From: an uncultured delta proteobacterium
GTDB taxonomy: Bacteria; Myxococcota_A; Polyangia; Fen-1088
Reading direction: 5' to 3'
Assembly (NCBI GenBank): GCA_963737265.1
Contig: CAVTRY010000011.1
Coordinates: forward strand, 224,001 to 288,000
Length of the DNA: 64,000 nt
The first letter of the stretch is position 1. Each line of letters starts with the position of its first letter. Both the position numbers and the translations under genes were made by a program. A model generated the notes under the pieces. The model had not been told where the DNA came from. It worked only from the letters and a program-made list of their open reading frames with translations, and searched no databases. Below, in pieces: positions 5,648 through 59,275 of this stretch.

Positions 5648-5651
5648 GGTG

Positions 5652-41708: not shown

Positions 41709-41725
41709 ATGCAATAGAGTTGCAC
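41709..41725. promoter_or_regulatory. palindromic operator copy 1 (ATGCAA-N5-TTGCA)
   Basis: ATGCAATAGAGTTGCAC. Confidence 0.6.
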
Positions 41726-41744
41726 CTCGTGGCGAACGACGATA

Positions 41745-42813: not shown

Positions 42814-42830
42814 ATGCAATCTAGTTGCAG
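42814..42830. promoter_or_regulatory. palindromic operator copy 2
   Basis: ATGCAATCTAGTTGCAG, ~35 bp upstream of the MerC-like ORF. Confidence 0.65.
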
Positions 42831-42864
42831 CGGCGCGGAGGCCAGACCATGGTTAGCGTGAGAC

Positions 42865-43714: not shown

Positions 43715-43719
43715 GCGCC

Positions 43720-43866
43720 TACCCTCGCCTGAAGGCGAGGGGTTCGCGAGCACGCCGGCCGACTGAAGTCGGCCCAGCCGGCGTGCTCTGGGAGCTGAAC
43801 GGAGTTGACCTAGCCCACCGGCGCTTCGCGCCTCCTGAAGGCTTCGCCTAAAGGCGAGGGGTTTCA
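43720..43866. mobile_element. palindrome cluster, IS200/IS605-end or REP-like non-autonomous element
   Basis: CCCTCGCCTGAAGGCGAGGG, GGCCGACTGAAGTCGGCC inside GAGCACGCCGGC..GCCGGCGTGCTC, and CTTCGCCTAAAGGCGAGGGGTTT. Confidence 0.6.
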
Positions 43867-43990
43867 AATTGGAGTGAGCCGTTCATAGTCATGGTCCTTT
43901 CACACGACCACGTGCCCGCCGAGGATCGTCGGAACCTTCTCGCGTGTGCTCACGTTGGCACGGAGGGCGGCGCGGGGGTAGGGTGCTGCG

Positions 43991-44561
43991 ATGACTCCCA
44001 CGCTGCGGCCGGATAACCTGGTCTGGATCGATCTCGAGATGACGGGTCTCGATCCTTGCGTCGACGTCGTCTTGCAGGCGGCGCTGGTAATCACCACCGC
44101 CAACCTCGAAACGCTGGACGAGCTCGCCGTCGACATCCGCCAGACGGAAGAGGTTCTGGCGTGCATGTCGCCTCACGTGCGCGAAATGCACACGCGCACC
44201 GGATTGGTTGACCGCGTGCTGCGCTCCACCGTCGACGCTGGCGACGCCGAGCGACTTCTGTTGGCGCGCATCGCCGTATGGTGTCCTTCACCGGCGATGC
44301 TGTGCGGAAACTCGATCTGGAACGATCGCCGTTTTATCGCGCGCCATATGCCCGCACTCGATCGATACCTGCACTACCGGGTTGTGGACGTGTTCGAGCA
44401 TCAAGGTCCTCGCCGGCCGATGGTACGGCGAGGCGGCGGTCTTCGCGAAGCCGACCGTCGGAGCTCACGACGCGAACATCGACGTCAAGCTCTCAATCGC
44501 CGAGCTACGGCACTATCGGGAAACGTTGTTTCGTGTGCCGAGCGTTGACGTGCCTGGCTGA
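43991..44561 (+). CDS. orn: oligoribonuclease; frameshift at ~44393, probably a sequencing error
   Basis: LVWIDLEMTGLD, MHTRTGL, CGNSI..DRRF, LHYR..DV/SSIK..HDA..D. Confidence 0.9.
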
Positions 44562-44579
44562 GCTGTTACGTTTGCGCAC

Positions 44580-44800
44580 TACCCACGGATCGACAGGGAG
44601 TTGTCTTTGAGGGTGGCCGCGGGCATGCGCAGGTGCGCCGAGGCCAGGAGCTCGCTGTCGAGCAAAACCTCCTCGGGCAGGCCTTGGCGGGCGAGTTGGC
44701 CGTGGGCAAGCACTGGCGCTGAGGTGGTCGAGAAATGCGAGGAAGTGCGCGCTGCCCGTTGGCATTCATGCCGGCCGTCGATGGTTCGCATCCTCGGACA
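44580..44800 (-). pseudogene. degenerate second copy of the ECF/CbiO ATPase 3' end
   Basis: TAGMNANG..HFLAFLDHLSAS..VLAHGQLARQGLPEEVLLD.ELLASAHLRMPA matches the ORF at 45909..46382. Confidence 0.8.
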
Positions 44801-44807
44801 CCAGCGT

Positions 44808-45233
44808 CTACGGCGCCCTCATCAGGATTCGGAATCCCGCTTGCGCAAAGTGCTGATCGGGAGTCGCTGCCTCGGTCGCTGCGTGGTCGAGCATGATCTC
44901 CATGCTCAAACAATCAGTCAGGCTCCATGTCTTATCCGCGTGGGCGGCGTACCGGGCCTCGGCGCGGTCCAGTAGTTGTGGAGTCAAGCGCTCAATGGTC
45001 CAGCCAGCCATCCTTTGGCGCAGGCGGCGCAGCCATGACGCTGCGAGTGCCCGCAAAGGGCTGCGGGCGAAGAAGTTCCCAAACTCGATCAATACCGCGT
45101 CGGTCGTCACGAGAGCTTGCCCAGACTTCTCCCAACTCCGGGCCAAGGTCTTGGCCTGGGCGTGAAGCGAGTCCTTCTGGTTGATGAGGGCGACCAGGTA
45201 GCCCGTGTCGATCAGTATTGCCGCCTTAGCCAT
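44808..45233 (-). CDS. PIN-domain (VapC-like) toxin
   Basis: ILIDTGYLVAL...D..H, TTDAVLIE, SLTDCLS, T.D.HF.QAGF. Confidence 0.92.
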   Translation of the reverse strand: MAKAAILIDTGYLVALINQKDSLHAQAKTLARSWEKSGQALVTTDAVLIEFGNFFARSPLRALAASWLRRLRQRMAGWTIERLTPQLLDRAEARYAAHADKTWSLTDCLSMEIMLDHAATEAATPDQHFAQAGFRILMRAP

Positions 45234-45657
45234 CGTGGTTTTCGTAAAGGTACTGGTCGACGTTCTGACTGCCGTCGGTGCGGTCATCGCGACCGGCCTC
45301 CCCTACCAGAGCAGAGAGAAATGCTCCGGGGCTGCTGTTTGGCGGCGCGCCAGGAAGCGGCGAGTTGGGGTTGGGGATCACCTGATGAATCTTCACTTCT
45401 ACCGTGTCGCCGCCGTTGATTCCCGTGACGGCCGCAGGGACGGCGAATTCATTATCGTAGGTCAGGTCCGCCAAGAGGTGATTCCATCGGCCCTGTCCCT
45501 GCCGTCTGATCGAGTAGCGCACAATATGGTTGCTGGGCCGTCGAGTCAGCCCCAACCGCCGTTGCTCGGCGGCGGGAATTGCGATCAATCGATTCTTCGT
45601 CCGGTGGACCATAGCCGAAAACCTGGCCAGGGTAGTCGCAAGATTGGGGTTTGCCAT
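45226..45657 (-). CDS. putative antitoxin (AbrB/DUF1905-like N-terminus plus D-x-S-x-N-x-D-x-YLY tail)
   Basis: Overlaps the PIN start; IAIPAAEQRRLGL and AVPAAVTGINGGDTVEV; tail DGSQNVDQYLY. Confidence 0.7.
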   Translation of the reverse strand: MANPNLATTLARFSAMVHRTKNRLIAIPAAEQRRLGLTRRPSNHIVRYSIRRQGQGRWNHLLADLTYDNEFAVPAAVTGINGGDTVEVKIHQVIPNPNSPLPGAPPNSSPGAFLSALVGEAGRDDRTDGSQNVDQYLYENHDG

Positions 45658-45908
45658 ACCGGGAATTGTGCTGCGTCCTTGGAACTTAGTCAAGTCGCGC
45701 ATTGATGACTTGATAAGCTCTGGGCGTCGCTATGCTGCATTGCTGAGCGGTCCTTGCGTTGCTCAGGGCTCTAGGCCAACCACCCATACCCCATGCCGTC
45801 TCCGATCTCCCCCTTCGACGTGCGGCTGTGGAACCGGATGGAACCGTGGCAGCATTGACGGTCCTCGCCGATCCGGGCCGCGGCTTTGGACCGGCTTTGA
45901 ACGCCCAC

Positions 45909-46382
45909 CTACCGCTGACAGCCACTCTCGATATCCAAGACCCCACGGCCATCCGACTGCAGCAGGCGAACGAGTTGCTCCATGGTCCTTGGTATTTCGC
46001 ACACATTGGGTATGGAACGCGGACCGTATGCCAAGCGAAAGCCTTCGATCACCGCGGGCATGCGCAGGTGCGCCGAGGCCAGGAACTCGCGGTCGAGGAG
46101 AACCTCTTCGGGCAGGCCTTGGCGGGCGACTTGGCCGTGCGCGAGCACGACGACCGACTCGGCCCACGCCAGCGCCAAGTCGGTATCGTGAATGGCTAGC
46201 ACGACCGTCGTTCCGCTGGCGCTCAACCGATGGAGGAACGCCAAGAACTGTATGCTGCCCGTGGCGTCCATGCCGGCCGTGGGTTCGTCGAAGATGAGCA
46301 CGTCGGGTCGCATGGCCATGATGCCCGCGATGGCGGCCCGCTTGCGCTGACCACCGCTCAGCATTATACGGGCAGTCAGCAT
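45909..46382 (-). pseudogene. C-terminal half of an ECF (CbiO-like) ABC ATPase
   Basis: LSGGQRKRAAIAG, FDEPTAG and H-loop present; Walker A absent. Confidence 0.85.
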
Positions 46383-46385
46383 CGG

Positions 46386-47446
46386 TCACGCCCTTGGGCC
46401 ACGCCAGGCAATCAGCTTGCCGGATTCGTACGCGACCACCAGGACGTCTCCTTTGGGGCTCCAGACGATCTTCGCCGCCGACGAGTCCCCTATGCCGAAT
46501 GCAAGCGGCTTTTTCGGCTGGCGCGCGTCCCAAACGAACACCGCACCATCGCGACCGACACTCGCAAGCAGGTATCCACCGGCCTGGAACGCGACATCGG
46601 TGATGGCGTTGGCATGGCCAAGACCGATCTTCGGTTGGGTGCCCGCGGGTCCCTTGCCCGAGAAATCCCAGATACAGAGCCCCTCGCCACCACCCGTGGC
46701 AAGGTATCGGCTGTCCGCGCTCCAACTGAGTTGCTTCACCTTCACCGGATAGCCCGACATCTCAAGGCCCTCGCCCGAGGCGGCCTCCAGATGTGCACGG
46801 AGGCGTCTTGCGACCCGCAGACGATCCACTTGCCGTCCGGGCTCACGCGCATGCAGATGAGCGAGCCCTTCCACTGAAAGGCGCGGCCTGACTTTCCGCT
46901 CGCCGCATCCCAGAAGCGCAGACCTCCGTAGGCGCTGGTCACGAGGCGATGGGAGTCAACGGGCCCTGCCAGACCGCTCGCGGTGCTCGGACGGACGAAT
47001 GCATGGATGGATTTGAGGTCCGGGCTCCAAACCTTGACCAGCTTTCCAGACCCGGTTGCCAGGCGGCTGCCGTCGGGAGTCCAACCCAGAAGCTCCACCC
47101 AGGCGGCGCCTCCCTCGGCTTCGGCGAGCGGATCGGATGAGCTCGCGGACCATAGCCGGACGCGCCCATCTTGGCCACCCGAGGCGAGGCGACTTCCGTC
47201 GGGAGACCAGGCGAGCGCGAGCGCACCAAGCGCGTGGCCTGCCACCTTTCTCCGGGATCTGCCGTTCGGCCCCATCAGATAGATGCGGCCTTCGCCTCCA
47301 GCCACGGCCAGGGTCTCGTGGCCCTGCGACCAGGCCATGTCGATGGGGAAGTCGCCGATTTCGGTTTGCCACAGGATCTCCAGCACGGGGACATTGGCCA
47401 CCGCCTTCGCAAACGCATCCGCCTCGGGCGCGATCAGCGCAGGCAT
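46386..47446 (-). CDS. WD40-repeat protein (frameshift at ~46787)
   Basis: Repeated [16 protein letters not shown] units across two frames; coupled to the COG0523 gene. Confidence 0.88.
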
Positions 47447-48810
47447 GCGCGGAATCCTTCGTTCAATGCGGTCGCGTCGAGATCGCGGCCGATGAACACC
47501 AACTGATTGGACCGCTTCTCTTTCCCCCACGGCCGCTCGGGCTCGCCGTCGAACAACATGTGGACGCCTTGGAATACGAAGCGCCGATCCTGATCGGCAA
47601 TGCTGACGATGCCTTTCATGCGGAAGATGTTGGTCCCTTGCTCCATGAGAGTCTTCGACACCCACGCGTTCAACTTCTTCTCGTCCAGGTCGCCATCGGC
47701 CACGATGCTGACCGAGGTCACGGTGTTGTCGTGCACATGCCCTGGGTTGTACTGGTGAACCGAGATAGGCTCGACGGCTTCGCCATCGCGGCGCACGAGC
47801 CGCATGGCGAACTCCGAGGGCAGGTGCTCGGTGTAGAGCACGACATGACCCGGGTAGGGGATCTCGATCAGGACGCGTTTCTCGCCCTTTCGCTTGAGGT
47901 CGATGCGATAGAGCACGCCAGGAAGAAGATAGCCCCCCGTGGCGGGATTGCTGCGCCTCTCGGAGATCAGGCTGACCGCCTCGGCACGTGCCGCTATCAA
48001 CTCCTTGTCGCGTGTATTCGGGATCGGGAGCAAGAGCACGTCCATCGACGGATCGGGGCTGCCATCCTGGAGGGTCAGCACGTGCTCGCCCTTGCCGAGG
48101 CGATACACGCCAGACCACTCGAACGGGTACTCCGGCTCCAAGAAGGCCGGCCGGGTGTCCAAGGCACGCGTGAGATCGAAGCCGCCAACATCGAGAACGT
48201 GGTCCAGATCGATGTCGGCGTTGCGCGTTCGGTGAATGCGAGCCATCGCGTTCATCGAGCGGATCGTCCGCTCAAGGGCGTCAAGCTCCTGCTCGGACAC
48301 CAGGTCGACCTTGTTGAGCAGGATGACGTCGGCAAACGCGATCTGCTCCTGGCACTCTTTGCTGTCCCTGACGTGGAGCGAGACGTGTTTCGCGTCGACG
48401 AGGGTTACGATGCCGTCGAGTCGCAACTGATCCCTCACCTCGTCATCGACGAAGAAGGTTTGCGCGACCGGGGCCGGGTCGGCGAGGCCCGTCGTCTCGA
48501 TGAGAATGGCATCGAGCCTATCCCGCCGTTTCATCAGATTACCGAGGATGCGAATGAGATCCCCGCGCACGGTGCAGCAGATGCATCCGCTGTTCATCTC
48601 GAAGATCTCTTCCTCGGCACCAATGACGAGGGCGTTGTCGATACCCACTTCGCCGAACTCGTTCTCGATGACCGCGATTCTCTTTCCGTGGTTTTCCGTC
48701 AGGATCCGGTTGAGAAGCGTGGTCTTTCCCGAACCCAGAAAACCAGTAAGGACAGTGACAGGGACGCAGTCCTTCTCCGAAGACTCGTCCGTGGATTGTT
48801 GATTCGCCAT
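47434..48810 (-). CDS. COG0523 (CobW/ZigA/YjiA-type) metallochaperone GTPase
   Basis: [33 protein letters not shown]; CobW_C FRMKG...QLVFIG. Confidence 0.95.
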
Positions 48811-48857
48811 GAAGCTCTCCCTTGATGAGTGCAGATGGTATAGCTGGCGCCGGGCTC

Positions 48858-48878
48858 ATATGCAAGTCTGTTGCATAT
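48858..48878. promoter_or_regulatory. palindromic operator copy 3, between the divergent COG0523 and Fur-family genes
   Basis: ATATGCAAGTCTGTTGCATAT. Confidence 0.8.
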
Positions 48879-48955
48879 ATTGAAAAGGAAGATCGTCGAG
48901 TTGCGAACCCGCGCGCGACCTATGATAGAATGACGGTCAAAGAGCAGGAGACACG

Positions 48956-49426
48956 GTGCGAAGGAATGCGAAGAACCCGGAGACTCAGCAGAGAATCGAC
49001 GACAAGGTGCGGACCTTGCTCGCCAGCGCCAAGTTGCGCCACACCCGGCAGCGGAGTGGAATCCTCGGACTGCTGGTCGAGAAACCAGGGCCCTTCAGCA
49101 CCCAGGAGATCCGTTCTCTCCTTGGCCAGGAGACCTGCGATCCGGTGACGATTTACCGTGTTCTGGAGAACTTCGAGAAGGCACGTATCGTGCGCCGATG
49201 TGACTTTTCGGATGGGGTTGGGCGGTATGAGCTCGCCGCGGGCGACAAGCACCACCATCACCTCGTCTGCACCGGGTGTCGGCGCGTCGAGGATCTGGAC
49301 GTCACGGACTGCCCGACCCAGAAGCTTGAGCGCTTGGCCCGCGCGCGCGGCTACGCGGAAGTCGAGCACTCGCTCGAAATCTTCGGACTCTGCCCGCGCT
49401 GCCAGACCATCGCCGGTCCCGGCTAG
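48956..49426 (+). CDS. Fur-family metalloregulator (Zur-like)
   Basis: TRQR..IL, VTIYRVL, HHHHLVCTGC...HSLEIFGLCPRC (two CxxC motifs). Confidence 0.93.
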   Translation: MRRNAKNPETQQRIDDKVRTLLASAKLRHTRQRSGILGLLVEKPGPFSTQEIRSLLGQETCDPVTIYRVLENFEKARIVRRCDFSDGVGRYELAAGDKHHHHLVCTGCRRVEDLDVTDCPTQKLERLARARGYAEVEHSLEIFGLCPRCQTIAGPG

Positions 49427-49512
49427 GCTCCGGCCAGGGTCTTGGCTTGCCTGCGCAGGCGGAATTGCTCCGTGACGCCGCCGATGAACAGCGTGGCGAC
49501 TCCGGCCCATTC

Positions 49513-49535
49513 GATATGCAAGTCAATTGCATATC
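49513..49535. promoter_or_regulatory. palindromic operator copy 4, upstream of the uptake operon
   Basis: GATATGCAAGTCAATTGCATATC with perfect 9-bp arms. Confidence 0.8.
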
Positions 49536-49709
49536 AAGATTACGGGATTATGCACAGCCGATGTGGCGACGCGGTACCAGCGGGTGCGAGCGTCGTAGGT
49601 GGCGAACGAATGCCTCCTTTGCGAGCCGCGCGACGGAATGGCAAATCATTGGAAGGATCCAACATTCGACTTGCTCGTGACCGACGCGTGGCTCATATTC
49701 CGGCGCAGC

Positions 49710-50156
49710 ATGCTGGCGCGAACGGATAGAGACAGGCCGCTTCTGCCCCGTAAGGGTGCTGTGGTGGCCAGACTGTTCGCTGCGGCACTGATCGCCGCCG
49801 TCGGATTCGCGCAGTTCTCGGCCTTCCGGCACGAGGCCAACGTCAGGCACGTGGAATGTGCGGAGCACGGAGAGGCGATCGATGTCGGAATCGTCTCGAA
49901 CCTGGGACCGCCTGCCGTGCACCATCGCGCTGCCGGCACGGGGATGGAAGGGGCCGATAGTGCAGGGGTCTCGCCCCACGAACACTGCTCCGTCGTCTTA
50001 GCGTTTCGGGCAAGCGCGCGAGCACAGATGGTAAGGCTGGCCACGCGTTTCGTTCCGCCGGCAATTGTCGTTAGCCGGATTAGTGCTCCGGCACCGCGAC
50101 CTGGACGCGCGTTCGTCCTCGCTCGTGCGCCGAAGACCTCGCCCCCGTCGGTCTGA
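49710..50156 (+). CDS. His/Cys-rich leader protein with C-terminal RAPKTSPP (DUF2946/CruR-like)
   Basis: Hydrophobic N-terminal segment, HEANVRHVECAEHGE, HEHC, Pro-rich end; directly upstream of the TBDT. Confidence 0.7.
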   Translation: MLARTDRDRPLLPRKGAVVARLFAAALIAAVGFAQFSAFRHEANVRHVECAEHGEAIDVGIVSNLGPPAVHHRAAGTGMEGADSAGVSPHEHCSVVLAFRASARAQMVRLATRFVPPAIVVSRISAPAPRPGRAFVLARAPKTSPPSV

Positions 50157-50273
50157 TCCATTTCGATCCGTCGACGTGGGTGGACCCTAGCTCCAGCGCG
50201 CGCTGTGCGAGCTACGTGGCCGTCGTCAGCCGCCCACCTGTTCATCGTTTTTCGGACCTATCGAGGAGATCTC

Positions 50274-52916
50274 GTGTTTTCACCGCGCCCCATTTCTCAT
50301 CGCCACAATCGCTTTCGATCCCTCAAACCCAGCGTGTGTCTTGCGCTCGGGTTGTGCGCCTGGTTCGCGGCGCGGCCCATGGCTCGTGCCCAGAACGCGG
50401 AAACGCCCACGCTCGAACCGCCGACGGTTTTGGAACAGCAACAGCCTTCCTATCCCCGAGAAGCTGCCGGCGGCGCGCAAGGCGATGTCGTGGTCAACGT
50501 GGCGATCGACAGCGCGGGAAACGTCACCGGGGTGACGCTCGTGCATGGCGCGGCGCCGCCCCTCGACCGCGCCGCGATCGAGGCAGCCAGCCACTGGCGA
50601 TTCAAGCCCGCGCTCCGCGATGGCGTCGCGGTTCCGAGCCGAGTTCAGCTCCTCTTCCACTTCGAGCCGCCGCCGTTGCCTTCATTGCCCGCACCTCCGT
50701 CCAAGCCAGAGACCGCCAGCCCGCCGGCCGTCCCGGCGCCCACGCCGACCACGCAATCGCCGGCCGTCCCGGCTCCCGTGCCGACGACGGAATCGCCGCC
50801 GGCCGCGCCATCTGCTCTTGAAGTCACCGTGCTCGGCCGCCGTCCGCCGGTCAGCCGGGGCGCGTCCGATTTCCAAATCCGCGTCGACCAGCTTGCCGAG
50901 GTCCCGCGCGCCAATGCCTCCGAGCTGCTCAAACTGGCGCCTGGCATTCTCCTGACCAACGAAGGCGGCGAGGGCCACGCCGAACAGGTCTTCATGCGCG
51001 GGTTCGATGCGCGAGAGGGACAGGACATCGAGTTCACGGTGGGCGGCGTGCCAATCAACGAAAGCGGGAACCTGCACGGTAACGGCTACGCCGACACGCA
51101 TTTCATCATCCCCGAATTGGTCGAGTCGCTGCGCGTGCTCGAAGGACCCTTCGATCCGCGCCAGGGGAACTATGCAGTGGCCGGCAGCGCCGACTACCAG
51201 CTCGGGCTGGCCGAGCGGGGACTCACCGCGCGCTACACCAGCGGGAGCTTCGGCACGCAGCGCGTGCTGGGGCTGTGGGGGCCGCCGGGCGAGAGCACGC
51301 ACACCTTCGGGGCGGCCGAGATCTACAAAACGGACGGGTTTGGTCAGAATCGGGACGCCCAGCGCGCGTCGGTCATGGGTCAGTACGAGGGGCGCTTCGG
51401 GAACAGCGGCAGCTACCGCATCACGACCCAGGCCTATGCCACCCACTTTCATTCGGCCGGCATCGTTCGCGAGGACGACTACCAATCGGGGAAGATGGGC
51501 TTCTTCGACAGCTACGACCTCAGCAGCTTCGCGCGCGAGCACGTGCCCGAGAGCGGAGATGCCTCGCGCTACTCGCTGGCCGCAGATCTCGAAACCCGCG
51601 CCGGGGACACCACCTTCTCCCAGCAGATTTTCGTCATCAAGCGCGACATGCGCCTGCTCGAAAACTTCACCGGGTTCCTGCTCGACGTGCAGGAGCCGCT
51701 GCAAAGCGTGCACGACCAGCGCGGCGACATGATCGACCTCGCCGTTCACGAGGTCACCATCGGCGCGCGCGGCTCCGCGCGCCTGCACGGAATCTTTCTC
51801 GGCCAGCTGCAAGAGATGGAGTTGGGCTACTTCGCACGCGGCGACCAGGCCGCGGGCACGCAGCAGCGCCTGGAGGCGTCGACCGGCGTGCCCTATCTGA
51901 CCGACACCGATCTCGTCTCCCAGATCGGAAACATCGGCCTCTACGGCGACGCGAACCTGCGGCTGCGCTCGTGGCTCAGCCTGCGCGGCGGCGCACGCGC
52001 CGACCTTCTCACCTACAGCGTTCTCAACAACTGTGCCGCGCAGACCGTCGCCCATCCCTCGACCACCAACCCTCCCATCGACCAGAGTTGCTTGAGCCAG
52101 CAGGACTACGGACGTCCGCGCGAGCCCGACCAGGAAACCTCCACGTCGAGCGTCGCGTTCCTGCCGCGCGCCTCGCTCATCGTCGGCCCCTTCCGCGACG
52201 TCACCTTTTCGGCCAGCTACGGCCAGGGTATTCGATCGATCGATCCCTCCTACATCACCCAGGACGTCGCGACGCCGTTCGCGCACATCGTCGCCTACGA
52301 AGCCGGGGCTGGCTACGCCGCGAACATAAGGGACACCACCGTCATCGCGCGCTCGGTCTTTTTTCAGACCGTGGTCGACAGGGATCTCATCTTCGACCAA
52401 ACCGCCGGGCGCAACGTGGTTGGGGTCGGCACCACGCGCTCGGGCTGGATCGGGGCGCTGCGCTTGACCGGACGATTTTTCGACGAGTCGGCGAACCTGA
52501 CCCTGGTACGTGCGACCTTCAACGACAACCACGAGGCAGTGGCCTACGTGCCGTCCACCGTGCTCCGCTCCGACACCGCGCTTTTCACCCTGTTGCCGTG
52601 GCGCCCGCGCGGGACGCCGGTGCGCGCCTCGCTGAGCGGCGGCGTGACCTTCGTCGGCCGGCGCCCGCTGCCCTATGGGGAGGTCAGCGATCGTATCTTC
52701 ACCGTCGACGCATCAGCCATCCTTTCCTGGTCGCACTACGAATTGCGGCTCCACTCGACCAACCTGCTCAACACGCAATACCGCCTGGGCGAATACGACT
52801 ACGCCTCGGATTTTCACGGCCAGCCGCAGCCGACGTTGGTGCCCGAACGCGAATTCGCGGCCGGCGCGCCCCGCGCGGTTTTCGTCACCTTTGGCATCAA
52901 CCTCGGAGGTTCGTGA
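50274..52916 (+). CDS. TonB-dependent receptor with N-terminal TonB_C domain and Pro-rich linker
   Basis: YP.EA...G.V.V...ID..G.V...WRFKPA TonB_C; plug (MRGFDAREGQD, GVPINE, IPELV..EGPF); barrel C-terminus. GAGGAG RBS before GTG. Confidence 0.92.
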   Translation: MFSPRPISHRHNRFRSLKPSVCLALGLCAWFAARPMARAQNAETPTLEPPTVLEQQQPSYPREAAGGAQGDVVVNVAIDSAGNVTGVTLVHGAAPPLDRAAIEAASHWRFKPALRDGVAVPSRVQLLFHFEPPPLPSLPAPPSKPETASPPAVPAPTPTTQSPAVPAPVPTTESPPAAPSALEVTVLGRRPPVSRGASDFQIRVDQLAEVPRANASELLKLAPGILLTNEGGEGHAEQVFMRGFDAREGQDIEFTVGGVPINESGNLHGNGYADTHFIIPELVESLRVLEGPFDPRQGNYAVAGSADYQLGLAERGLTARYTSGSFGTQRVLGLWGPPGESTHTFGAAEIYKTDGFGQNRDAQRASVMGQYEGRFGNSGSYRITTQAYATHFHSAGIVREDDYQSGKMGFFDSYDLSSFAREHVPESGDASRYSLAADLETRAGDTTFSQQIFVIKRDMRLLENFTGFLLDVQEPLQSVHDQRGDMIDLAVHEVTIGARGSARLHGIFLGQLQEMELGYFARGDQAAGTQQRLEASTGVPYLTDTDLVSQIGNIGLYGDANLRLRSWLSLRGGARADLLTYSVLNNCAAQTVAHPSTTNPPIDQSCLSQQDYGRPREPDQETSTSSVAFLPRASLIVGPFRDVTFSASYGQGIRSIDPSYITQDVATPFAHIVAYEAGAGYAANIRDTTVIARSVFFQTVVDRDLIFDQTAGRNVVGVGTTRSGWIGALRLTGRFFDESANLTLVRATFNDNHEAVAYVPSTVLRSDTALFTLLPWRPRGTPVRASLSGGVTFVGRRPLPYGEVSDRIFTVDASAILSWSHYELRLHSTNLLNTQYRLGEYDYASDFHGQPQPTLVPEREFAAGAPRAVFVTFGINLGGS

Positions 52917-53719
52917 TGCGGAAACGACGTCTCTGGCTCTTCTCGCTCTTGCTCGCGCCGGGAGGCATTGCGTGCGTGGGACAAACCGGCGGCGACGCCA
53001 TCGACTTCGCGGTGGCCGCCGTGGGACCGGCGAGCGCGATCCTCGGGCAACCGCTTGCTTGCACCAACGACGGCAACTGGGCCATCTCGCTAACCCAGGC
53101 GACGCTGCATATCGGGGCCGTGTACCTCGATCAAAGCCAACCGATTTCGGGCGGACAAGCCACCGGCTGCTACCTCACCGGGACCTACGTCGCGCAGGAA
53201 ACCTCGGCGCTCGACGTGGATCTCCTGTCGCCCGAGCCGCAATTGTTTCCCGCCGACGCCCACGGCATTACCTATCCGCCAGCGCTGGTCGGCCAGGTTT
53301 GGCTGACCCACGGGGATATCAACACCATTGCCGATCGGGTTCCCGTGCTCCAGGTGGCGGGCACGGCCACGCAAGCGGCCAGCGCCTATCCGTTCACCGC
53401 CGCGCTCACCATCGGATCGAATCGGCAAGCCTCGGGCGGCGCGGTGGCCGGGGGCGATCCCATTTGCAAGGAACGCATTGTCTCGCCGGTTCCGGCCGCG
53501 GTGACCATCCAGCCGACCGGCGGGCTGCTTTTGACCGTCGATCCGTGCCGCCTGTTCACCAACGTCGACTTCAGCCAGCTGGGGCCAGGCTCGACGCCCG
53601 GCACGTACGCCTTCAGCGACGACCCGACATCGGCGGGCTACACCCAGCCGAGTCAGAACCTTTACGGAAATCTGCGCAACACGGGGCCGTACACGTTCTC
53701 GTGGACCCCGAATCCATAA
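52916..53719 (+). CDS. uncharacterised lipoprotein 1 of the uptake operon
   Basis: MRKRRLWLFSLLLAPGGIAC lipobox; TGATG coupling to the receptor. Confidence 0.8.
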   Translation: MRKRRLWLFSLLLAPGGIACVGQTGGDAIDFAVAAVGPASAILGQPLACTNDGNWAISLTQATLHIGAVYLDQSQPISGGQATGCYLTGTYVAQETSALDVDLLSPEPQLFPADAHGITYPPALVGQVWLTHGDINTIADRVPVLQVAGTATQAASAYPFTAALTIGSNRQASGGAVAGGDPICKERIVSPVPAAVTIQPTGGLLLTVDPCRLFTNVDFSQLGPGSTPGTYAFSDDPTSAGYTQPSQNLYGNLRNTGPYTFSWTPNP

Positions 53720-53731
53720 ACACAGAAGGAG

Positions 53732-55096
53732 ATGAAAGCAATGAGAACCAGAGATGAGAGAATGCGAACCAAGATCTTGATGATTGGGGCGGTCGTCGTC
53801 GTGGCCGCCGCGTTTGCAGGCTGTGGGAGCAGCAGCAGCTCGCCGCCGGACACGGGCGGTGCGACCACGGCCGGCGGTGCGACCGGCGCAGGCGGTGCCA
53901 CCAATACTGGCGGCGCCACCGGCGCGGGCGGATCGGGCGTCACGAGCTTCACACCGCCCGCGGATCCGGGCCCTGGAGGAATTATCTTCGCGGCCTCGGG
54001 CGAGGTCCTCGCGCTCACGGGTTACGCCTTCCCGCCCGTGAACCCCGGCGATCCGGCATTCGTGGACGGTTGGCAGGTGAGTTTCACGCGCCTGCTCGTC
54101 ACTGTCGACAAGATCGTGCTGTCGAGCAACCCGGACGTCAGCCCCGGCAACCAGGCGCTCACCGGGCCGGCGCCGGGCAGCGTGGGTGGCGGGCTGGTCG
54201 CCGAGGTGGATGGGCCCTGGGCGGTCGACCTGGCTCACGGCGATCCCAGCTACCTTCCCGGCAAAGGTGGTCCGGGCGAAGAGGCGGTACCCATCGTGGC
54301 GCTCAAGACCCAGAACAAGAACGGCAACAAGGCCTTCGCCACCGACGGCACCCGCTACGCATTCGGGTTCGATGTCGTGCCCGCGACAACGAGCGCTCTC
54401 AACGTCAACCTCGATAGTGCGGCGATGTCCGACTACCAGCAAATGGTCGCCGATGGCTGCACCGTGCTTTACGTTGGAATCGCCACTTTCAAGGGCGGCA
54501 CGGTTCCAGGACACACAGATTGCAATAGCGGAGCCTATGCCACCTGGCCGACCACGGTAAACTTTCACTTCTGCTTCAAGTCGCCGACTACCTACGGCAA
54601 CTGCCAGAACCCCGACAACGATCCGGCGCAGGCCCTCTCCGGCGAAGAGCACGAGCGCGGCATCGCGTTCCTGGCCAACGAATCGGTCATCGGGCAAGTC
54701 ACGATTCACACCGATCACCCGTTCTGGGATAGCGTGCTGCACGACTCGCCCGCGCACTTCGACCAGTTCGCCGCGCGTGTGGTCGGCCAAGTGGACGCGG
54801 GCGTGCCCACGGCGACGCTGGAAATGACCCAGGGGGTGGACTACACCGCGTACACCGATGCGCTCGGCAATCGCCTCAACTGGCGCTACTGCATGGATCC
54901 GCCGACCGACGTTCACCCGCAGTTCACAGGAGCCATGGCCTTCGATCCACAAAGCGTGCCCCACGCCACCGGGAACGATCCCTCCACCGGCCTGCGCGAC
55001 TATTACGACTACACGACTTACGACCAGAGCACGCAAGGGCACCTGAACTCGGACGGGCTGTGCGCGGTCGAGCGGCACTATCCGTCGCCCCAATGA
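53732..55096 (+). CDS. uncharacterised lipoprotein 2 of the uptake operon
   Basis: FAGC lipobox, Gly/Thr linker, TIHTDHPFWD and GHLN, several Cys. Confidence 0.85.
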   Translation: MKAMRTRDERMRTKILMIGAVVVVAAAFAGCGSSSSSPPDTGGATTAGGATGAGGATNTGGATGAGGSGVTSFTPPADPGPGGIIFAASGEVLALTGYAFPPVNPGDPAFVDGWQVSFTRLLVTVDKIVLSSNPDVSPGNQALTGPAPGSVGGGLVAEVDGPWAVDLAHGDPSYLPGKGGPGEEAVPIVALKTQNKNGNKAFATDGTRYAFGFDVVPATTSALNVNLDSAAMSDYQQMVADGCTVLYVGIATFKGGTVPGHTDCNSGAYATWPTTVNFHFCFKSPTTYGNCQNPDNDPAQALSGEEHERGIAFLANESVIGQVTIHTDHPFWDSVLHDSPAHFDQFAARVVGQVDAGVPTATLEMTQGVDYTAYTDALGNRLNWRYCMDPPTDVHPQFTGAMAFDPQSVPHATGNDPSTGLRDYYDYTTYDQSTQGHLNSDGLCAVERHYPSPQ

Positions 55097-55104
55097 GGTA
55101 AGCC

Positions 55105-55803
55105 TTGAGCGCCATTGAAACGGTCAAGCGGATCTTGCTCGCGTCGGGCGCGGGCTGGGTCCTCTGGTTCCTTGGGGCGCTGTCGATGGCCAGCCTCGCG
55201 CTGGCCGTCGAGCGCTGGCTCTATTTGCGCAGACGTGGTGGCGATCTCGAAGCCCTCGCTCGCGAGCTCGACGAACACCTGTCGAGCGGCGACTTCGTCA
55301 GCGCACGGCGCGTGCTCGAGGCCAGCTCAGCGGTGGCGGCGCGCGTGGCGGACGCGGGCTTGCGACTCGCCGAGCGGGGAACCGAGGCTGCCGACAAGGC
55401 GATGCAAAGTGCGGCGGCTCTCGAACGCGGTCGCCTCGAACGCTGGCTCGCCTTCCTGGCCACGGTGGGCAACAATGCTCCCTTCATCGGACTGTTCGGA
55501 ACCGTGGTGGGCGTCATCCACGCTTTCGAAGAGCTCGGCCACGCCGCCCCTGCCCACGCAGCGGCGGCTGGCCAGGTCGCTTCGCAGGCGGTGATGTCCA
55601 GCATCGCCGAGGCCCTGGTCGCGACCGCCGTCGGCATCCTGGTCGCGCTGCCGGCGGTGGCGGCCTACAACTACTTGCAACGGCGAGTGACGGCCTTGCT
55701 TTCCGGGGCCGAGGTGTTGACCAACCTGGTGCTCGCATACATCGCGGACGATGCGCGGCCGCGACTGCGCGAGGTGAAAGGGGTGGGCGATGGCGGCGCC
55801 TAG
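55105..55803 (+). CDS. exbB: ExbB/TolQ/MotA proton channel
   Basis: FLATVGNNAPFIGLFGTVVG, IAEALVATAVGI. Confidence 0.9.
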   Translation: MSAIETVKRILLASGAGWVLWFLGALSMASLALAVERWLYLRRRGGDLEALARELDEHLSSGDFVSARRVLEASSAVAARVADAGLRLAERGTEAADKAMQSAAALERGRLERWLAFLATVGNNAPFIGLFGTVVGVIHAFEELGHAAPAHAAAAGQVASQAVMSSIAEALVATAVGILVALPAVAAYNYLQRRVTALLSGAEVLTNLVLAYIADDARPRLREVKGVGDGGA

Positions 55804-56212
55804 CGGACAGGCCGCGAACGGGATCATCTCCGGCATCAACGTCACCCCGCTCGTGGACGTGATGCTCGTGCTTCTGGTGATCTTCATCGTGACGGCGAAG
55901 ATCATCGTGACCCCGGCGGTGCCGCTCGATCTGCCGCACGCGGCTCATGGCGAGGAGGTGCAAGTCGTTCTGTCGGTGATCGTGCCCGTGCGCGGGCCGA
56001 TGCTGGTCAACGGCGCTGCTTTGCCGAACGACGAAGCCCTGGAGGACAAAGCGCGTGCGGCCCTGGCTGGCGACCGAGATCTGCGCGCGGTCATCCAAGC
56101 CGATGGCGACGTGCCCCACCGGCGCGTGATCCACGTGCTCGATCTGCTCAAAGGCGCCGGGCTAACCCGCGTGGCGTTCGGTGCGCTTCCAGTCGAGCAA
56201 GAGAAGCAGTGA
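55790..56212 (+). CDS. exbD: ExbD/TolR
   Basis: INVTPLVDVMLVLLVIF, IQAD. Confidence 0.92.
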   Translation: MAAPSGQAANGIISGINVTPLVDVMLVLLVIFIVTAKIIVTPAVPLDLPHAAHGEEVQVVLSVIVPVRGPMLVNGAALPNDEALEDKARAALAGDRDLRAVIQADGDVPHRRVIHVLDLLKGAGLTRVAFGALPVEQEKQ

Positions 56213-56222
56213 GGCACGTTTC

Positions 56223-57047
56223 ATGCGCTATCCTTTGTCGACCAAACTCGTGAACCGTTCACCGCGCATCGTGGATCTGGTTTTTCTCGCCGAGCCCGCG
56301 GGCCGATGGCGGCGACTTGCCGTGGGCGGCGCGGCGGTGCTGGCGCTTTATGGTGGCGCTCTTTCGCTGGTGAGCCGCCTGGGCAACTCCCTCGGTCCGT
56401 GGAGCGCGGAGATGGCCGCGCGCATTCACGAGGCCATCGCGATGGAGCGAGCGATCGATGTGACGCCGCCTCCGCCCCAAGCTGCACCACCACCTCCCGC
56501 GCCCGCGCCGGAAGCGCCCCATATCGCGATTCCTCGAACCGCGCGGGCACTCAACGCGCAGCAACCTCGCGCGACGCCACCCGCGCAGGCGGGACAACTC
56601 GCGGCGGCGTCGACGGAGCCGGTCGATTTCACCGGCATGGCGTTCATCGTCGGCTCGGGTGCTTCCTACGCCGGGGGGACAACGACCAGCAGCGGAACCA
56701 GCCGCAAGGCAGCGCTCGGTGCCGTCGGTCCTGGGCCAAGTGTCGGCAAGTCGTCTGGTGGTCGCAGTCGAGCCCGCCAGGTCTCGCTCGACCAATCCGC
56801 TTGGAACTGTCCTTGGCCGGCCGAGGCCGATGCCGAGCAGGTAAACGAACAGACGGTCGTACTGAAAGCGAGCGTGGGAGCCGACGGCCGGGCCGAGCGG
56901 GTGGATGTCCTCAGCGATCCTGGATTCGGATTCGGTGCGGCTGCTCGCCTTTGTGCGCTCCGGACTCGCTTCGAGCCCGCGCGCGATTCGGCCGGACAGC
57001 CCATCGCCGCACAATCTCCCTCCATCCGCGTCCACTTTTATCGGTGA
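56223..57047 (+). CDS. tonB: TonB energy transducer
   Basis: TM anchor, Pro-rich segment, TonB_C (V...V.ADG....V.V.SDPG.GFG.AA..CA....F.PA). Confidence 0.82.
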   Translation: MRYPLSTKLVNRSPRIVDLVFLAEPAGRWRRLAVGGAAVLALYGGALSLVSRLGNSLGPWSAEMAARIHEAIAMERAIDVTPPPPQAAPPPPAPAPEAPHIAIPRTARALNAQQPRATPPAQAGQLAAASTEPVDFTGMAFIVGSGASYAGGTTTSSGTSRKAALGAVGPGPSVGKSSGGRSRARQVSLDQSAWNCPWPAEADAEQVNEQTVVLKASVGADGRAERVDVLSDPGFGFGAAARLCALRTRFEPARDSAGQPIAAQSPSIRVHFYR

Positions 57048-57056
57048 AGGACTCTC

Positions 57057-57353
57057 ATGCGCTCGCACCTCTTGCTTTTCGTGGTCCTCGTCGCCGGTGA
57101 GCTCTCGGGTTGCAATCGTCATCCCGCGCGCGTGGACGAATGCGAGGCGATCCTCAACCGTCTCATAGAACTCGAGCTCAGCGAGTCCGGATACCGGGAT
57201 TCTGTTCTTCGTGCGCGTTGGCAGCAGGACCTGGCCCGTCGCTTCGCGCCGGACATGGACCGTTGTCGCGGGCGCGAAGTGCGCGGTTCTCTTAGGACTT
57301 GTCTCGCAACGGCGCGGAGCTCGGAAGAGATCGTTCACCGGTGTCTCGATTGA
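57057..57353 (+). CDS. small Cys-rich lipoprotein
   Basis: LSGC lipobox, additional spaced Cys, RBS GAAGGA. Confidence 0.7.
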   Translation: MRSHLLLFVVLVAGELSGCNRHPARVDECEAILNRLIELELSESGYRDSVLRARWQQDLARRFAPDMDRCRGREVRGSLRTCLATARSSEEIVHRCLD

Positions 57354-57559
57354 TCTGGATTCGCCGCCGCCCCTTCCGCGTTGCCCTTCTAGCTGCCTTG
57401 CATTTTCACAATCTCGATCTTGGCAATCACTTGGCAGGGGATGGTGTAACCCGAGGCGCGGAGCCCGCGGCTATCTGAGGCGACTCGTCATCCTTCCGGC
57501 GGATGTCGGCAATCGGATCCGACCATCCGGTGTCAGGTATACTAGGAGACACAAAAGCC

Positions 57560-58177
57560 GTGAGCGACGCGCGCGACAAAAGCATCCTGTTTCTTCCAGG
57601 CGAAGTGGGTGAGCGCGCCCTCTATGCCAGGTTGGTCGCTGGCGAGGACGCCGCGTACCGCGAGTGCTACCAGCAGCACGCGCCCAAGCTGATGCGTCTA
57701 CTCACTGGCATCCTGCGCAACAAGGCCCGCGCCGAAGAGATTTTGCAGGAAACCTTCATCGCGGCCTTCCGAGGCATCGCCCGCTTCCGCGGCGAGGTGA
57801 GCATTGCCGTCTGGCTTGCGCGCATCGCCACCAACCGGGCCTACAACGCCCTTCGGGACGAAACCCGGGCCAAGCGAACCGCGCCGCCGCCCTCCGGCGA
57901 GCACGTCACGCATGCCGAGCTGCACGTCGAGGGCAGAGATCTGGCCCGCAAGGTCATGGCCATCTTGGATCAAATGGAACCATCCAAGAAGCTGACCCTG
58001 CTACTGCAAGCCGAGGGTTACACCACCGCGGAGATCGCCAACGTCACGGGAGAGCCCCGCGGGACCATCTTGGCCCGCCTGTCGCGCGGCCGTGCCGAGC
58101 TGTCATTGCGCATGGCCGAGGCCGGGCTTGTGGCGCGCGAGATGCCGGAGCACGTGCACGTGGAGGATCGGTCGTGA
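57560..58177 (+). CDS. ECF RNA polymerase sigma factor
   Basis: AEEILQETF, WLARIATN, EGYTTAEIA...GTILARL. Confidence 0.92.
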   Translation: MSDARDKSILFLPGEVGERALYARLVAGEDAAYRECYQQHAPKLMRLLTGILRNKARAEEILQETFIAAFRGIARFRGEVSIAVWLARIATNRAYNALRDETRAKRTAPPPSGEHVTHAELHVEGRDLARKVMAILDQMEPSKKLTLLLQAEGYTTAEIANVTGEPRGTILARLSRGRAELSLRMAEAGLVAREMPEHVHVEDRS

Positions 58178-59275
58178 CCGACTGCCTCTCGCTGCGCGAG
58201 CGTCACTTCACACCGGGCGCGGACAGCCATGCCGCTCCGGCGTGGGTCGCGCATCTCGGCGACTGTGCGGAATGCAGATTGGCGGTGGAGAATCTGCCGC
58301 AGGTCGATCGGGCGCTCGCCGAATGGTCGCGCGCGTCGCTCGAAGATCCCGGATTTTGCCACAGTCGCGCTGGCCGCCGCGGGCGCAGCGCGCAACCAAC
58401 GCAGACGGCGCACGGTTCGCCGTTCGGTGCCTTTCCTATACACAGGCTTCGTCACCGCCGCGCTGGCCGGCGGCTTGGTCGCCGCCGTGTGGGTCGCGCG
58501 CAATCGGGCTGCCGCGCCCAAGCTGCTGCTTGCCGGCGGCGAGCTTCACGCCACCGCCGAGGCCAAGACCGCCGTGCTCGGTAATGGCGCACGTGTCCGC
58601 TTGGACATGGGGACGCTCAAGATCGAAACCGGGAGTCGGTCCACGCAGGCATTGCTGCTGCCCGCCGGACGCGTTTTCATTGAAGTGCCCAAGCTGCCGG
58701 CCGGCAGCACCTTGTCGGTGCGCACGCCCGACGCGGAAATCCGGGTGCGTGGCACCCGTTTCCAAGTCATTCGCATCAGTCAGGAGACACAAATCCAAGT
58801 CAGCGAGGGCGTGGTCGAAGTCCGGCCGGTGGGATTGAGTCGGCCCACACAGTTCCTGCGCGCGGGCGAATCGACCACGGTCGGCTCGGCCGAGGCATAC
58901 CGCGAAGGCTTGCGGCGCCAGACCCTCGCCGCGCTCGAGCACGGCGAATTCTCCGCCGCCGAAGCGCGCATCGGTGAGTTGCTTGGATCGGGCGCCGAAG
59001 CTGCCCAGCAAGCCGAGGCCCAAGCACTCTTGGCCTGGTCGCTTTCCGCCCGCGGTAAGCGCGGCCTTGCCATCGCACGCTACCGGCAAGCGCTGGCGTT
59101 GTATCCCGCCGGGCAGCAAGCCCTTTGGGCGGAAAACGCCTGCGCCGAGCTCGCCATTCTGGTCGAGCAGGAGAGCCCCGCCAGCGGTCCCTCGGCCTGG
59201 GCCGATTGTCTGCGCCGATTCCCGGACGGCGTGCACGCCGAACTGGCTCGCGCGCGCGCCCAGCCCTCGCGATGA
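58174..59275 (+). CDS. anti-sigma factor: zinc finger + TM + FecR domain + TPR (frameshift at ~58343)
   Basis: HLGDCAEC in one frame, then TM, VRTPDAEIRVRGTRF (FecR) and helical repeats in the next. Confidence 0.85.

Follow-up and report, generated by a model that had tools for sequence, protein, structure and literature searches.

A candidate metal-uptake operon of Polyangia with Zur-type candidate operators and a borderline DUF2946-like first gene

In Bordetella pertussis, the CruR (Bp2923)-BfrG-Bp2921 operon begins with a DUF2946 protein, CruR, of 145 residues, which is predicted to be exported and carries a CXXC motif at positions 90-93 and the motif RAPP at its C terminus; this first gene is followed by a long spacer and then by the gene of a TonB-dependent transporter (TBDT) (Roy et al. 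2022, PMC9426467). According to the same report, copper sensing by the nascent CruR chain relieves a ribosome arrest, upon which Rho terminates transcription before the transporter gene, and the 45-residue spacing from CXXC to RAPP recurs in more than 2000 DUF2946 proteins, whose operons are reported to include TBDT, Sco, PCuAC, CopC, MbnPH-like and AhpC_TSA genes (PMC9426467). A further report describes most DUF2946 proteins as having a Sec signal, a metal site of the Cys/His type and a proline repeat at the C terminus (10.1101/2025.02.05.636593). Zur regulons, such as that of Caulobacter (ZnuK/ZnuL/ZnuM, ZrpX), are described as placing a Fur-family regulator, a COG0523 gene and a TBDT under one palindromic operator (PMC4176598), and in two genomes of Desulfovibrio, znuABC-zur is preceded by a predicted 17-bp Zur box, ATGCAACNNNGTTGCAT (Rodionov et al. 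2004, PMC545781). Here, we analyze a locus of an uncultured delta proteobacterium, a myxobacterium of soil (Myxococcota_A; Polyangia; Fen-1088) that would, judging by its sequence, combine the control layers of the CruR-TBDT copper operon and of Zur-controlled zinc receptors. It lies in a stretch of 64,000 nucleotides (nt), hereafter the window (assembly GCA_963737265.1, contig CAVTRY010000011.1, positions 224,001-288,000), of a host genome (G000) that comprises 6,553,521 bases and is 99.5% complete.

The reading that we favor, and hold to be a little better than evenly probable, is that the locus encodes a metal-starvation-induced outer-membrane uptake system of Polyangia under dual control. 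It would involve the following features, given in window coordinates.

46386-47446, reverse strand: WD40 beta-propeller gene (Pfam WD40, 83.9 bits; second piece, 51.2 bits)
47434-48810, reverse strand: COG0523 (CobW/G3E) GTPase, 458 residues (cobW, 208 bits; CobW_C, 95.7 bits)
48858-48878: box 1, ATATGCAAGTCTGTTGCATAT, at distances of 48 nt (COG0523 start) and 78 nt (regulator start)
48956-49426, forward strand: Fur-family metalloregulator, 156 residues (Pfam FUR, 71.3 bits)
49513-49535: box 2, in front of the operon, two 9-nt arms separated by 5 nt
49710-50156, forward strand: small open reading frame (ORF), 148 residues, in a frame open from a GTG at 49599
50157-50273, forward strand: spacer of 117 nt between the small ORF and the receptor gene
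50274-52916, forward strand: TBDT, the receptor (Pfam TonB_C, Plug and barrel)
52916-53719, forward strand: lipoprotein 1, 267 residues, lipobox Cys20
53732-55096, forward strand: lipoprotein 2, 454 residues, lipobox Cys31, with a low-complexity linker
55105-55803, forward strand: ExbB (Pfam MotA_ExbB, 105.7 bits)
55790-56212, forward strand: ExbD (Pfam ExbD, 84.4 bits)
56181-57047, forward strand: TonB-like protein, Pro/Ala-rich in its middle part, whose C-terminal TonB domain is weak
57057-57353, forward strand: small Cys lipoprotein, 98 residues, lipobox LSGC and four further Cys

A first reading of the bare sequence, made by a model (the original prediction), had proposed an undescribed zinc, cobalt or nickel acquisition system at this place. 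Every element that it listed was recovered at or near its position by Pfam and by reading of the sequence, and the tightly spaced, co-oriented run that it described is, by its layout, one operon from the small ORF to the small Cys lipoprotein. The order is small ORF, TonB_C-fused TBDT, lipoprotein 1, lipoprotein 2, ExbB, ExbD, TonB and small Cys lipoprotein; the TBDT stop codon overlaps the ATG of lipoprotein 1, and the next gaps measure 12, 8, -14, ~10 and 9 nt.

For comparison with other genomes, one genome per species was scanned, which yielded 125 loci with a relative of lipoprotein 2 (designated by L numbers). Eighty of these were kept; they come from Myxococcota-type metagenome-assembled genomes (Polyangiaceae, Polyangia, Myxococcales and delta-/proteobacterium) and from Minicystis rosea DSM 24000, a cultured strain whose locus (L077) encodes the receptor and both lipoproteins, preceded by a two-component pair. 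Gene presence was assessed by tblastn of the window proteins against the 80 loci, and flanking genes were called with a crude ORF filter based on GC at third codon positions (GC3). Since the loci are related, counts across them are not independent. The TBDT and both lipoproteins stand side by side in 45 of the 55 loci that could be assessed (at least 3.6 kb upstream), so the lipoproteins do keep company with a receptor elsewhere, a linkage on which the original prediction had staked its case. ExbB, ExbD and TonB follow downstream in 22 of 61 assessable loci (at least 2.6 kb downstream). DNA similarity with four relatives of the same genus (L013-L016, ~87%) spans exactly 49664-57354 and ends there; thus, the extracytoplasmic function (ECF) sigma factor and FecR genes downstream and the Fur and COG0523 genes upstream lie outside the shared block. 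The block 49,664-57,354 is a conserved Polyangia module. Within it, the small-ORF DNA (49664-50156) is only 70-73% identical to that of L013-L016, compared with ~87% in the remaining operon, and the spacer between small ORF and receptor gives no alignment at all in three of the four relatives.

Sequence comparisons place the small ORF, as a borderline case, with the DUF2946/CruR-type arrest-peptide sensors, of which it would be a divergent member. Among 800 candidates, 187 homologues were found at E <= 0.01; those listed are typically 128-148 residues long, and longer calls of up to 256 residues stem from alternative starts further upstream. Alignment of 51 family members revealed an N-terminal hydrophobic segment followed by the invariant residues H41, H47, C50, E52, H53 and G54, an invariant H90-x-H92-C93 motif and, after 45 residues between C93 and (R/S)139, an invariant A140-P-K-T-S-P-P146 that ends two residues before the stop. 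All three typical DUF2946 features appear to have a counterpart here: there is no CXXC, but an HxHC (HxxC) at the same place that keeps only the second Cys, and the C-terminal motif is a variant, RAP-KTS-PP instead of RAPP. The original prediction had called this gene a His/Cys leader ORF; the His and Cys residues are there and invariant, but the gene is a conserved protein of ~148 residues and no short leader. It occurs in 16 of the 80 other loci and in 15 of these lies directly upstream of the receptor gene, while in L091 the order is small ORF, lipoprotein 1, lipoprotein 2, receptor. The link to DUF2946 is carried by the relatives. Weak matches to the Pfam model PF11162 were obtained in 16 of the 51 aligned proteins, more than for any other model (best E 0.0012), and two proteins of another Myxococcota family (L121 and L122, with HEHC...SAPKTSPP) pass its cut-off at 29.1 and 28.4 bits. 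The L121 protein in turn matches the profile of the small-ORF family (hhalign 97.4%), and its gene precedes a receptor 55.5% identical to that of the window, in the same gene order. The subfamily thus touches PF11162, with the window member below the cut-off.

The likeness to the operons of CruR and of CutF from Rhodobacter capsulatus, as these are described, extends to an exported-looking first gene of ~145 residues with a metal motif (PMC9426467, 10.1101/2025.02.05.636593), and for CruR also to the Pro-containing arrest-type motif 45 residues on and the long spacer before the TBDT gene (PMC9426467); here, too, the small ORF is the first gene of its operon and a long spacer separates it from a TBDT gene. 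The differences are that HxHC and an H...H..C.EH block stand in for CXXC and (R/S)APKTSPP for RAPP, that the small ORF remains under the Pfam cut-off and has no PepSY_TM gene beside it, and that a Fur-family repressor, two lipoproteins without a family and a dedicated ExbBD-TonB set are added, for a metal that is possibly not copper. The passage on DUF2946 distribution in the CruR report lists no Myxococcota, the phylum of this module (PMC9426467). Within the library searched, literature from 2022 on CruR and DUF2946 gave no HxHC variant and nothing on this module; the distribution table of PMC9426467 may list Myxococcota or His-type members.

The small ORF may instead encode a stable exported or membrane-anchored metal-binding protein, in the role of a periplasmic chaperone or a sensor partner to the receptor, with control exerted by the Fur-family repressor alone. 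Its 148 residues, its hydrophobic N-terminal segment, its nine invariant His/Cys/Glu residues and the fact that it is called as a gene in many assemblies, with the 187 homologues noted above, speak for such a protein, as does the nature of the spacer, which shows no unusual fold (z -0.37) and no Rfam family. One weak terminator-like hairpin, found in a scan of 48700-50400, covers the ribosome-binding site of the receptor gene, and the scan returned no other terminator or attenuator. Against a stable protein stand the relation to DUF2946, the invariant APKTSPP placed exactly two codons before the stop, the fixed 45-residue spacing, the constant position at the head of the operon and the long spacers before the receptor gene, which elsewhere span ~100-230 nt by visual reading of the frames. 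In the published descriptions of CruR and CutF, these features are tied to regulation (PMC9426467, 10.1101/2025.02.05.636593). The distribution of the gene points the same way: it and a Fur gene never occur together in the other loci (0 of 80), whereas the window has both. The small ORF occurs in 16 loci and a Fur gene in 8, with no overlap, which fits two interchangeable switches for one signal. We regard the stable protein as unlikely, though the most credible of the alternatives. On the preferred reading of the small ORF as a sensor-arrest peptide, the combined transcriptional and leader-ORF control put forward in the original prediction would gain a concrete basis in the anatomy of DUF2946 and CruR.

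The transcriptional layer is suggested by the two boxes. The arms of box 2, GATATGCAA and TTGCATATC, are 100% complementary, but its 5-nt spacer is not palindromic, and the "perfect palindrome" originally claimed for 49513-49535 therefore holds for the arms and not for all 23 nt. Box 1 is a near-identical twin, 656 bp upstream, between the divergent COG0523 and regulator genes. Their common 21-nt pattern, allowing up to 2 mismatches, occurs twice in the window compared with 0 times in 100 shuffles, and these are its only two places in the 6,553,521-base genome. At the specified positions of ATGCAACNNNGTTGCAT, a consensus that was itself predicted and comes from Desulfovibrio, box 1 agrees at 13 of 14 and box 2 at 12 of 14. 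With up to 2 mismatches, ATGCAACNNNGTTGCAT has 16 sites in the genome versus 7-10 in whole-genome block shuffles, and 4 of the 16 fall within 8 kb: box 1, box 2 and sites at 41709 and 42814. In the related loci (1.18 Mb), 7 sites in 5 loci compare with 0-3 in shuffles; 5 of the 7 lie within ~170 nt upstream of a receptor or lipoprotein-1 gene (L023, L028, L040, L080 and L088). The site in L080 matches ATGCAACNNNGTTGCAT at 14 of 14 positions and lies between a Fur gene and the receptor gene, in a region (5394-6469) where ArsR-family and Fur-family genes stand back to back with one Zur-type box between them. L020 and L043 have a TGCAAC-N3-ATTGCA variant at the equivalent position. The boxes thus match Zur-type candidate operators that the COG0523/regulator region and the operon would share, and the metal link of the original prediction is borne out insofar as the Fur-family regulator and the COG0523 gene share one operator type.

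The regulator keeps an HHHH motif and two CxxC pairs (CTGC and CPRC), as in a Fur-family fold with a structural Cys4 site, and is one of only 2 Fur-family proteins encoded in the genome. Among solved structures, it scores 58.6 bits with the Fur protein 9ire, tied with the actinobacterial Zur proteins 3mwm (58.5), 7vo0 (57.6) and 2o03 (54.3). The COG0523 protein has both the cobW and the CobW_C domain and a visible GCICC motif; of the 4 cobW-family genes that the genome holds, this one ranks best, and it reaches 242.5 bits with PRK11537 and 191 bits with ZigA in NCBIfam, both under their cut-offs. Downstream of it, the start of the WD40 gene overlaps the COG0523 stop; the WD40 gene is split over two frames (46745-47446 and 46386-46874), so an apparent frameshift or assembly error is involved. 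In L075, the module is likewise preceded by a WD40 and COG0523 pair. No ZnuA-family (PF01297) match and no znuABC was found in the 99.5% complete genome. The locus resembles the Caulobacter Zur regulon in having a Fur-family regulator, a COG0523 gene and a TBDT under one palindromic operator type (as described in PMC4176598), and Desulfovibrio znuABC-zur in an operator nearly identical to the predicted one (PMC545781), but it differs from Zur regulons in that the genome lacks znuABC, the regulator stays under the Zur model cut-off, the receptor is unrelated to a named zinc receptor family, and a putative upstream-ORF sensor and two lipoproteins are added.

The receptor consists of a signal peptide, a TonB_C-like domain, a Pro-rich linker, a TonB-box-like LEVTVLG, a plug and a barrel. 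Pfam assigns TonB_C to residues 80-154 (59.7 bits); the plug, at 46.5 bits, and the barrel, at 27.4 bits, exceed their cut-offs. Its start is most likely the GTG at 50274, behind a GAGGAG, rather than 50205. The TonB_C domain is present on 40 of 48 assessable orthologues. A comparable arrangement is modelled in NCBIfam for MxcH-type receptors (NF038079), whose model positions 1-275, covering the N-terminal TonB_C-like domain and the plug, align to residues 72-368; at 87.9 bits, the alignment falls short of the cut-off of 925, and the barrel has no match, so this is not a myxochelin receptor. No metal-specific family was matched; NCBIfam covers only the N-terminal domain and plug, and solved relatives score at most 22 bits. 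ExbB, ExbD and TonB are encoded together, with the TonB domain of the last just under its cut-offs (Pfam TonB_C, 23.6 versus 24.6 bits; TIGR01352, 22.1 versus 27.1 bits) and its start likely at the ATG at 56223. They would form a dedicated motor for the receptor, together with the small Cys lipoprotein, which has tblastn matches after TonB in other loci and marks the end of the block shared within the genus.

As the original prediction had stated, the lipoproteins belong to no named family: lipoproteins 1 and 2 and the small Cys lipoprotein have no Pfam or NCBIfam match, even at E 10. They are nonetheless numerous, with 525 homologues of lipoprotein 1 and, among 8000 candidates scored, 1040 homologues of lipoprotein 2 at E <= 0.001. 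The lipoprotein-2 family counts 453 representatives of clusters at 50% identity, and the host genome has one copy. The 120 listed homologues of lipoprotein 2 contain no Pfam domain and are named only "hypothetical", and 10 of 10 distant or longer relatives likewise returned no Pfam family. After its linker, lipoprotein 2 has a beta-rich half and a highly conserved C-terminal half. E305, E306, H326, D328, H329, H337, H342, D344, H395, H437 and six Cys are invariant in 30 close homologues (at least 59% identity); across 48 homologues, down to 31% identity, H326, H329, D344, H437, C291 and C444 are kept in at least 90% and the remaining ones in fewer. Lipoprotein 1 has few conserved polar residues. 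The two lipoproteins were also considered as paralogues, but a profile comparison of 33-35% (hhalign) was not enough. A predicted complex of the two scored 0.02, which counts neither way.

A structural relative is suggested by MbnP of the MbnT-MbnP-MbnH system (PDB 7L6G), in which a TBDT is likewise followed by secreted beta-rich proteins and whose Myxococcota homologues of MbnP are also lipoproteins. The AlphaFold2 models are of low confidence (predicted local distance difference test, pLDDT, of 59 for lipoprotein 1 and 63 for lipoprotein 2). In an exhaustive structural comparison with 48,161 chains, MbnP (7l6g_A) ranked second for both, at Z under 8 and with by far the longest alignment in either list: lipoprotein 1 gave Z 5.5 and a root-mean-square deviation (rmsd) of 5.1 over 203 residues, and lipoprotein 2 gave Z 4.9 and rmsd 4.9 over 174 residues, nearly the whole MbnP chain in both cases. 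In the ESM Atlas, MbnP was the sole named family for both (0.91 for lipoprotein 1, 0.90 for lipoprotein 2). A diverse lipoprotein-2 profile matched the MbnP profile at 50% by hhalign, over 35 columns only, and the other lipoprotein-MbnP comparisons gave 24% (signal peptide only) and 14%. Foldseek found no match of the lipoprotein-2 model in the PDB at E <= 0.001, and the lipoprotein profiles returned only noise from PDB chains (E 0.75 and 1.4) and missed 7l6g, which an MbnP control profile found at E 5.9e-66. The hallmarks are absent as well. Neither lipoprotein has, among its invariant or consensus residues, the WxW that holds the Trp converted to kynurenine in MbnP (as described in PMC11951088). 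The operon contains no gene for MbnH, a di-haem peroxidase, and the 25 commonest families in the 180 neighboring ORFs of related loci (out of 75 and 92) do not include CCP_MauG. PF20243 (MbnP) has no match in the genome, and lipoprotein 2 differs further by an additional C-terminal half, rich in His and highly conserved. Membership in the MbnP family was therefore rejected for want of a Pfam or profile match, WxW and MbnH. With weak but repeated hints set against missing hallmarks, an MbnP-like fold is only a lead; on these models we hold it to be somewhat improbable.

Relatives of lipoprotein 2 also occur apart from the module. Ten loci have lipoprotein 2 but no receptor, and several of these adjoin a pair of ABC exporter-like genes. 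In L024, L045, L052, L058 and L063, a lone lipoprotein-2 relative, with neither receptor nor lipoprotein 1, stands beside two ~600-residue genes whose N-terminal sequences look like those of ABC exporter halves. In L045, a 143-residue His-containing membrane ORF without a Pfam match lies directly upstream.

Taken together, these features suggest how dual control may operate. As a first switch, the metal-loaded Fur-family protein would bind both predicted operators, box 1, which separates its own gene from the divergent COG0523-WD40 pair, and box 2 before the operon, and scarcity of metal would de-repress both. The second switch would be the first gene of the operon, the putative DUF2946/CruR-type sensor-arrest peptide, whose nascent chain may hold metal in a His/Cys site formed by H90-x-H92-C93 with H41, H47, C50, E52 and H53. 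By analogy with CruR, a ribosome pausing at (R/S)APKTSPP would let transcription cross the long C-rich spacer into the receptor gene, and binding of metal to the nascent chain would relieve the pause and turn the operon off; we infer both the mechanism and its polarity. The lipoproteins would assist the receptor by binding metal, either as its captors or as its recipients in the periplasm.

The original prediction had named zinc, cobalt or nickel as the metal. Zinc is our foremost candidate, at nearly even probability. In its favor, the box is of the Zur type, COG0523 is linked, other Zur candidates are lacking, and the motifs of the small ORF and of lipoprotein 2 are rich in His and Glu rather than in Cys and Met. 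His, Glu and a single Cys in place of CXXC, with the His/Asp cluster of lipoprotein 2, would favor a borderline divalent metal over Cu(I). Copper is a real rival, although an unlikely one; another divalent metal is still less likely, and a cargo other than a free metal would come as a surprise.

A number of findings weigh against the favored reading. The small ORF itself reaches only 11.1 bits (E 0.68) with PF11162, over profile positions 5-116 of 117, compared with a cut-off of 23.7, and its family profile matches four canonical CXXC/RAPP DUF2946 proteins at only 1.6% (hhalign). The C-over-G bias of the spacer (C 35-40% and G 17-32% across 50070-50360) is not special, since the whole operon has negative GC skew. 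The regulator reaches no NCBIfam subfamily cut-off, Zur (NF008646) included at 38.2 versus 167 bits, and Fur models outscore the Zur model, yet are also far under their own cut-offs. At the position aligned to a Cys of Streptomyces coelicolor Zur, which we take to be the sensing Cys, it has an Ala. The operon contains no inner-membrane importer. Fur and COG0523, which the original prediction had noted upstream, turned out to be inconstant neighbors: a Fur-like gene flanks the module in 8 of 80 loci (FUR confirmed for L040) and is absent in 72, a COG0523 gene does so in 3 (L050, L075 and L083, in three different arrangements) and is absent in 77, and both are missing beside the module in all four closest relatives, L013-L016. 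The Desulfovibrio Zur box is itself a purely computational prediction (PMC545781). Two further points bear on the metal: in the two reports cited on the family, every characterized DUF2946 protein, including both prototypes, CruR and CutF, senses copper (PMC9426467, 10.1101/2025.02.05.636593), and the MbnPH-like genes reported in CruR-type operons (PMC9426467), set beside the weak MbnP-like signals of the lipoproteins, point to copper.

These last points lead to the view that the module is a copper acquisition operon of the CruR type, with a DUF2946 upstream ORF, a TBDT and MbnP-like proteins, next to which the Fur and COG0523 genes would form a separate zinc unit that lies upstream by chance. 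The gene content reported for DUF2946 operons (PMC9426467), the second rank of 7l6g for both lipoprotein models, MbnP as the only name in the ESM Atlas, the 50% profile match over 35 columns and the lack of Fur and COG0523 beside the module in its closest relatives are all consistent with it. So are some neighbors, as the 180 ORFs flanking the module in related loci include SCO1/SenC twice, AhpC-TSA five times, COX3 three times and COX1 once. These copper-linked neighbors are few, however, and the AhpC gene of L016, like its homologues in L013 and L014, adjoins a 2-oxoacid dehydrogenase gene and may be unrelated to the module. The similarity to MbnP rests on models with pLDDT 63 and 59, lacks WxW, MbnH and any PF20243 match in the genome, and is not seen by profiles that miss 7l6g where the control profile finds it. 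HxHC replaces CXXC in the small ORF. A chance neighborhood also does not sit well with the Fur-type box 2 directly before the operon and a like box before the module in five other loci, and we know of no copper-sensing Fur-family protein. We therefore consider a copper operon improbable.

That the module moves a metallophore, a peptide or another nutrient, with substrate-binding or enzymatic lipoproteins and metal regulators that reflect a need for a cofactor, is very unlikely: the receptor matches no metal-specific family and its solved relatives score at most 22 bits, the HxDH...H...H of lipoprotein 2 would suit a catalytic metal site just as well, and the flanking genes of related loci are heterogeneous (kinases, two-component systems), but the conserved block contains no genes for metallophore biosynthesis or inner-membrane transport, metal regulators recur beside the module (Fur in 8 loci, ArsR-type in L023 and L080), and so does the DUF2946-type sensor.

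Outside the module, the following features were noted in the window.

41709-41725: weaker Zur-type box, ATGCAATAGAGTTGCAC, matching at 12 of 14 positions, before P-type ATPase fragments
42814: weaker Zur-type box, ATGCAATCTAGTTGCAG, matching at 12 of 14 positions, 50 nt before the MerC-family gene
42865-43287, forward strand: MerC-family membrane protein (Pfam MerC, 63.8 bits)
57503-58177, forward strand: ECF sigma factor
58229-59275, forward strand: FecR-domain protein, downstream of the operon

The receptor has no STN signaling domain. The P-type ATPase fragments (41240-42685, forward strand) are two out-of-frame pieces of the heavy-metal type (E1-E2_ATPase, 38.3 bits; Hydrolase, 40.8 bits); with neither end preserved, this is probably a pseudogene. 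A 154-residue ORF at 43250-43714 (forward strand) has no Pfam match; its end, by eye, resembles the last strands of a TonB-dependent receptor, and it may be a remnant. At 45909-46382 (reverse strand) lies the C-terminal fragment of an ABC ATPase, matching only positions 108-137 of ABC_tran (32 bits). The P-type ATPase, MerC-side and ABC ATPase remnants suggest that metal-transport genes have decayed along a stretch upstream of the regulator, where the GC content is 0.59-0.63 compared with 0.65-0.69 in the operon. No Rfam family was found over 41000-58500 at E <= 0.1, and a sigma-70 promoter scan of 48700-50400 gave 0 sites. The census of the 180 flanking ORFs revealed no further constant partner of the module.

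The locus is thus best placed as a variant of the published CruR-TBDT operon type and not as a new category. The claim of an undescribed system had to be given up, since operons of an upstream ORF and a TBDT are published for copper (PMC9426467) and TonB_C-fused receptors are modelled in NCBIfam (MxcH). The self-energised complex and the lipoproteins as lids or metal captors, likewise put forward in the original prediction, outrun what the sequence supports. Literature searches, within the library covered, found no description of a TonB_C-fused receptor and, for Myxococcus xanthus, Zur and COG0523, no paper on this module. What appears to be new is a His-type, APKTSPP-ending subfamily of DUF2946-like sensors in Myxococcota, as its motifs suggest, together with two large lipoprotein families without a name, the fusion of TonB_C to the receptor, and the pairing with ExbBD-TonB and a small Cys lipoprotein.

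Outer-membrane metal uptake of myxobacteria is almost unstudied, and among the Polyangia of soil the module is common. The family of lipoprotein 2, although still without a name, counts over 1000 homologues and 453 clusters at 50% identity, and no role has yet been ascribed to the TonB_C domain that is so widespread on the receptors. With its repressor and putative nascent-peptide sensor in one operon, and relatives that have one or the other, the locus lends itself to the question of why two layers of control are used. With the small ORF, the arrest-peptide sensors of the DUF2946 kind would gain a His-type motif and a phylum new to them, and it provides a natural case in which to ask whether metal specificity is set by the motif. 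In its boldest form, which we consider doubtful, the proposal is that an HxHC DUF2946 peptide senses zinc (or cobalt or nickel) together with a Zur-type repressor, as the first non-copper nascent-peptide sensor, and gates a TonB_C-fused receptor with two MbnP-fold lipoproteins for metallophore-independent capture, in a system found throughout soil Polyangia. If this were true, the mechanism of CruR would be a device of general use that can be tuned to the metal, and the lipoprotein families would represent a new class of outer-membrane metal binders.

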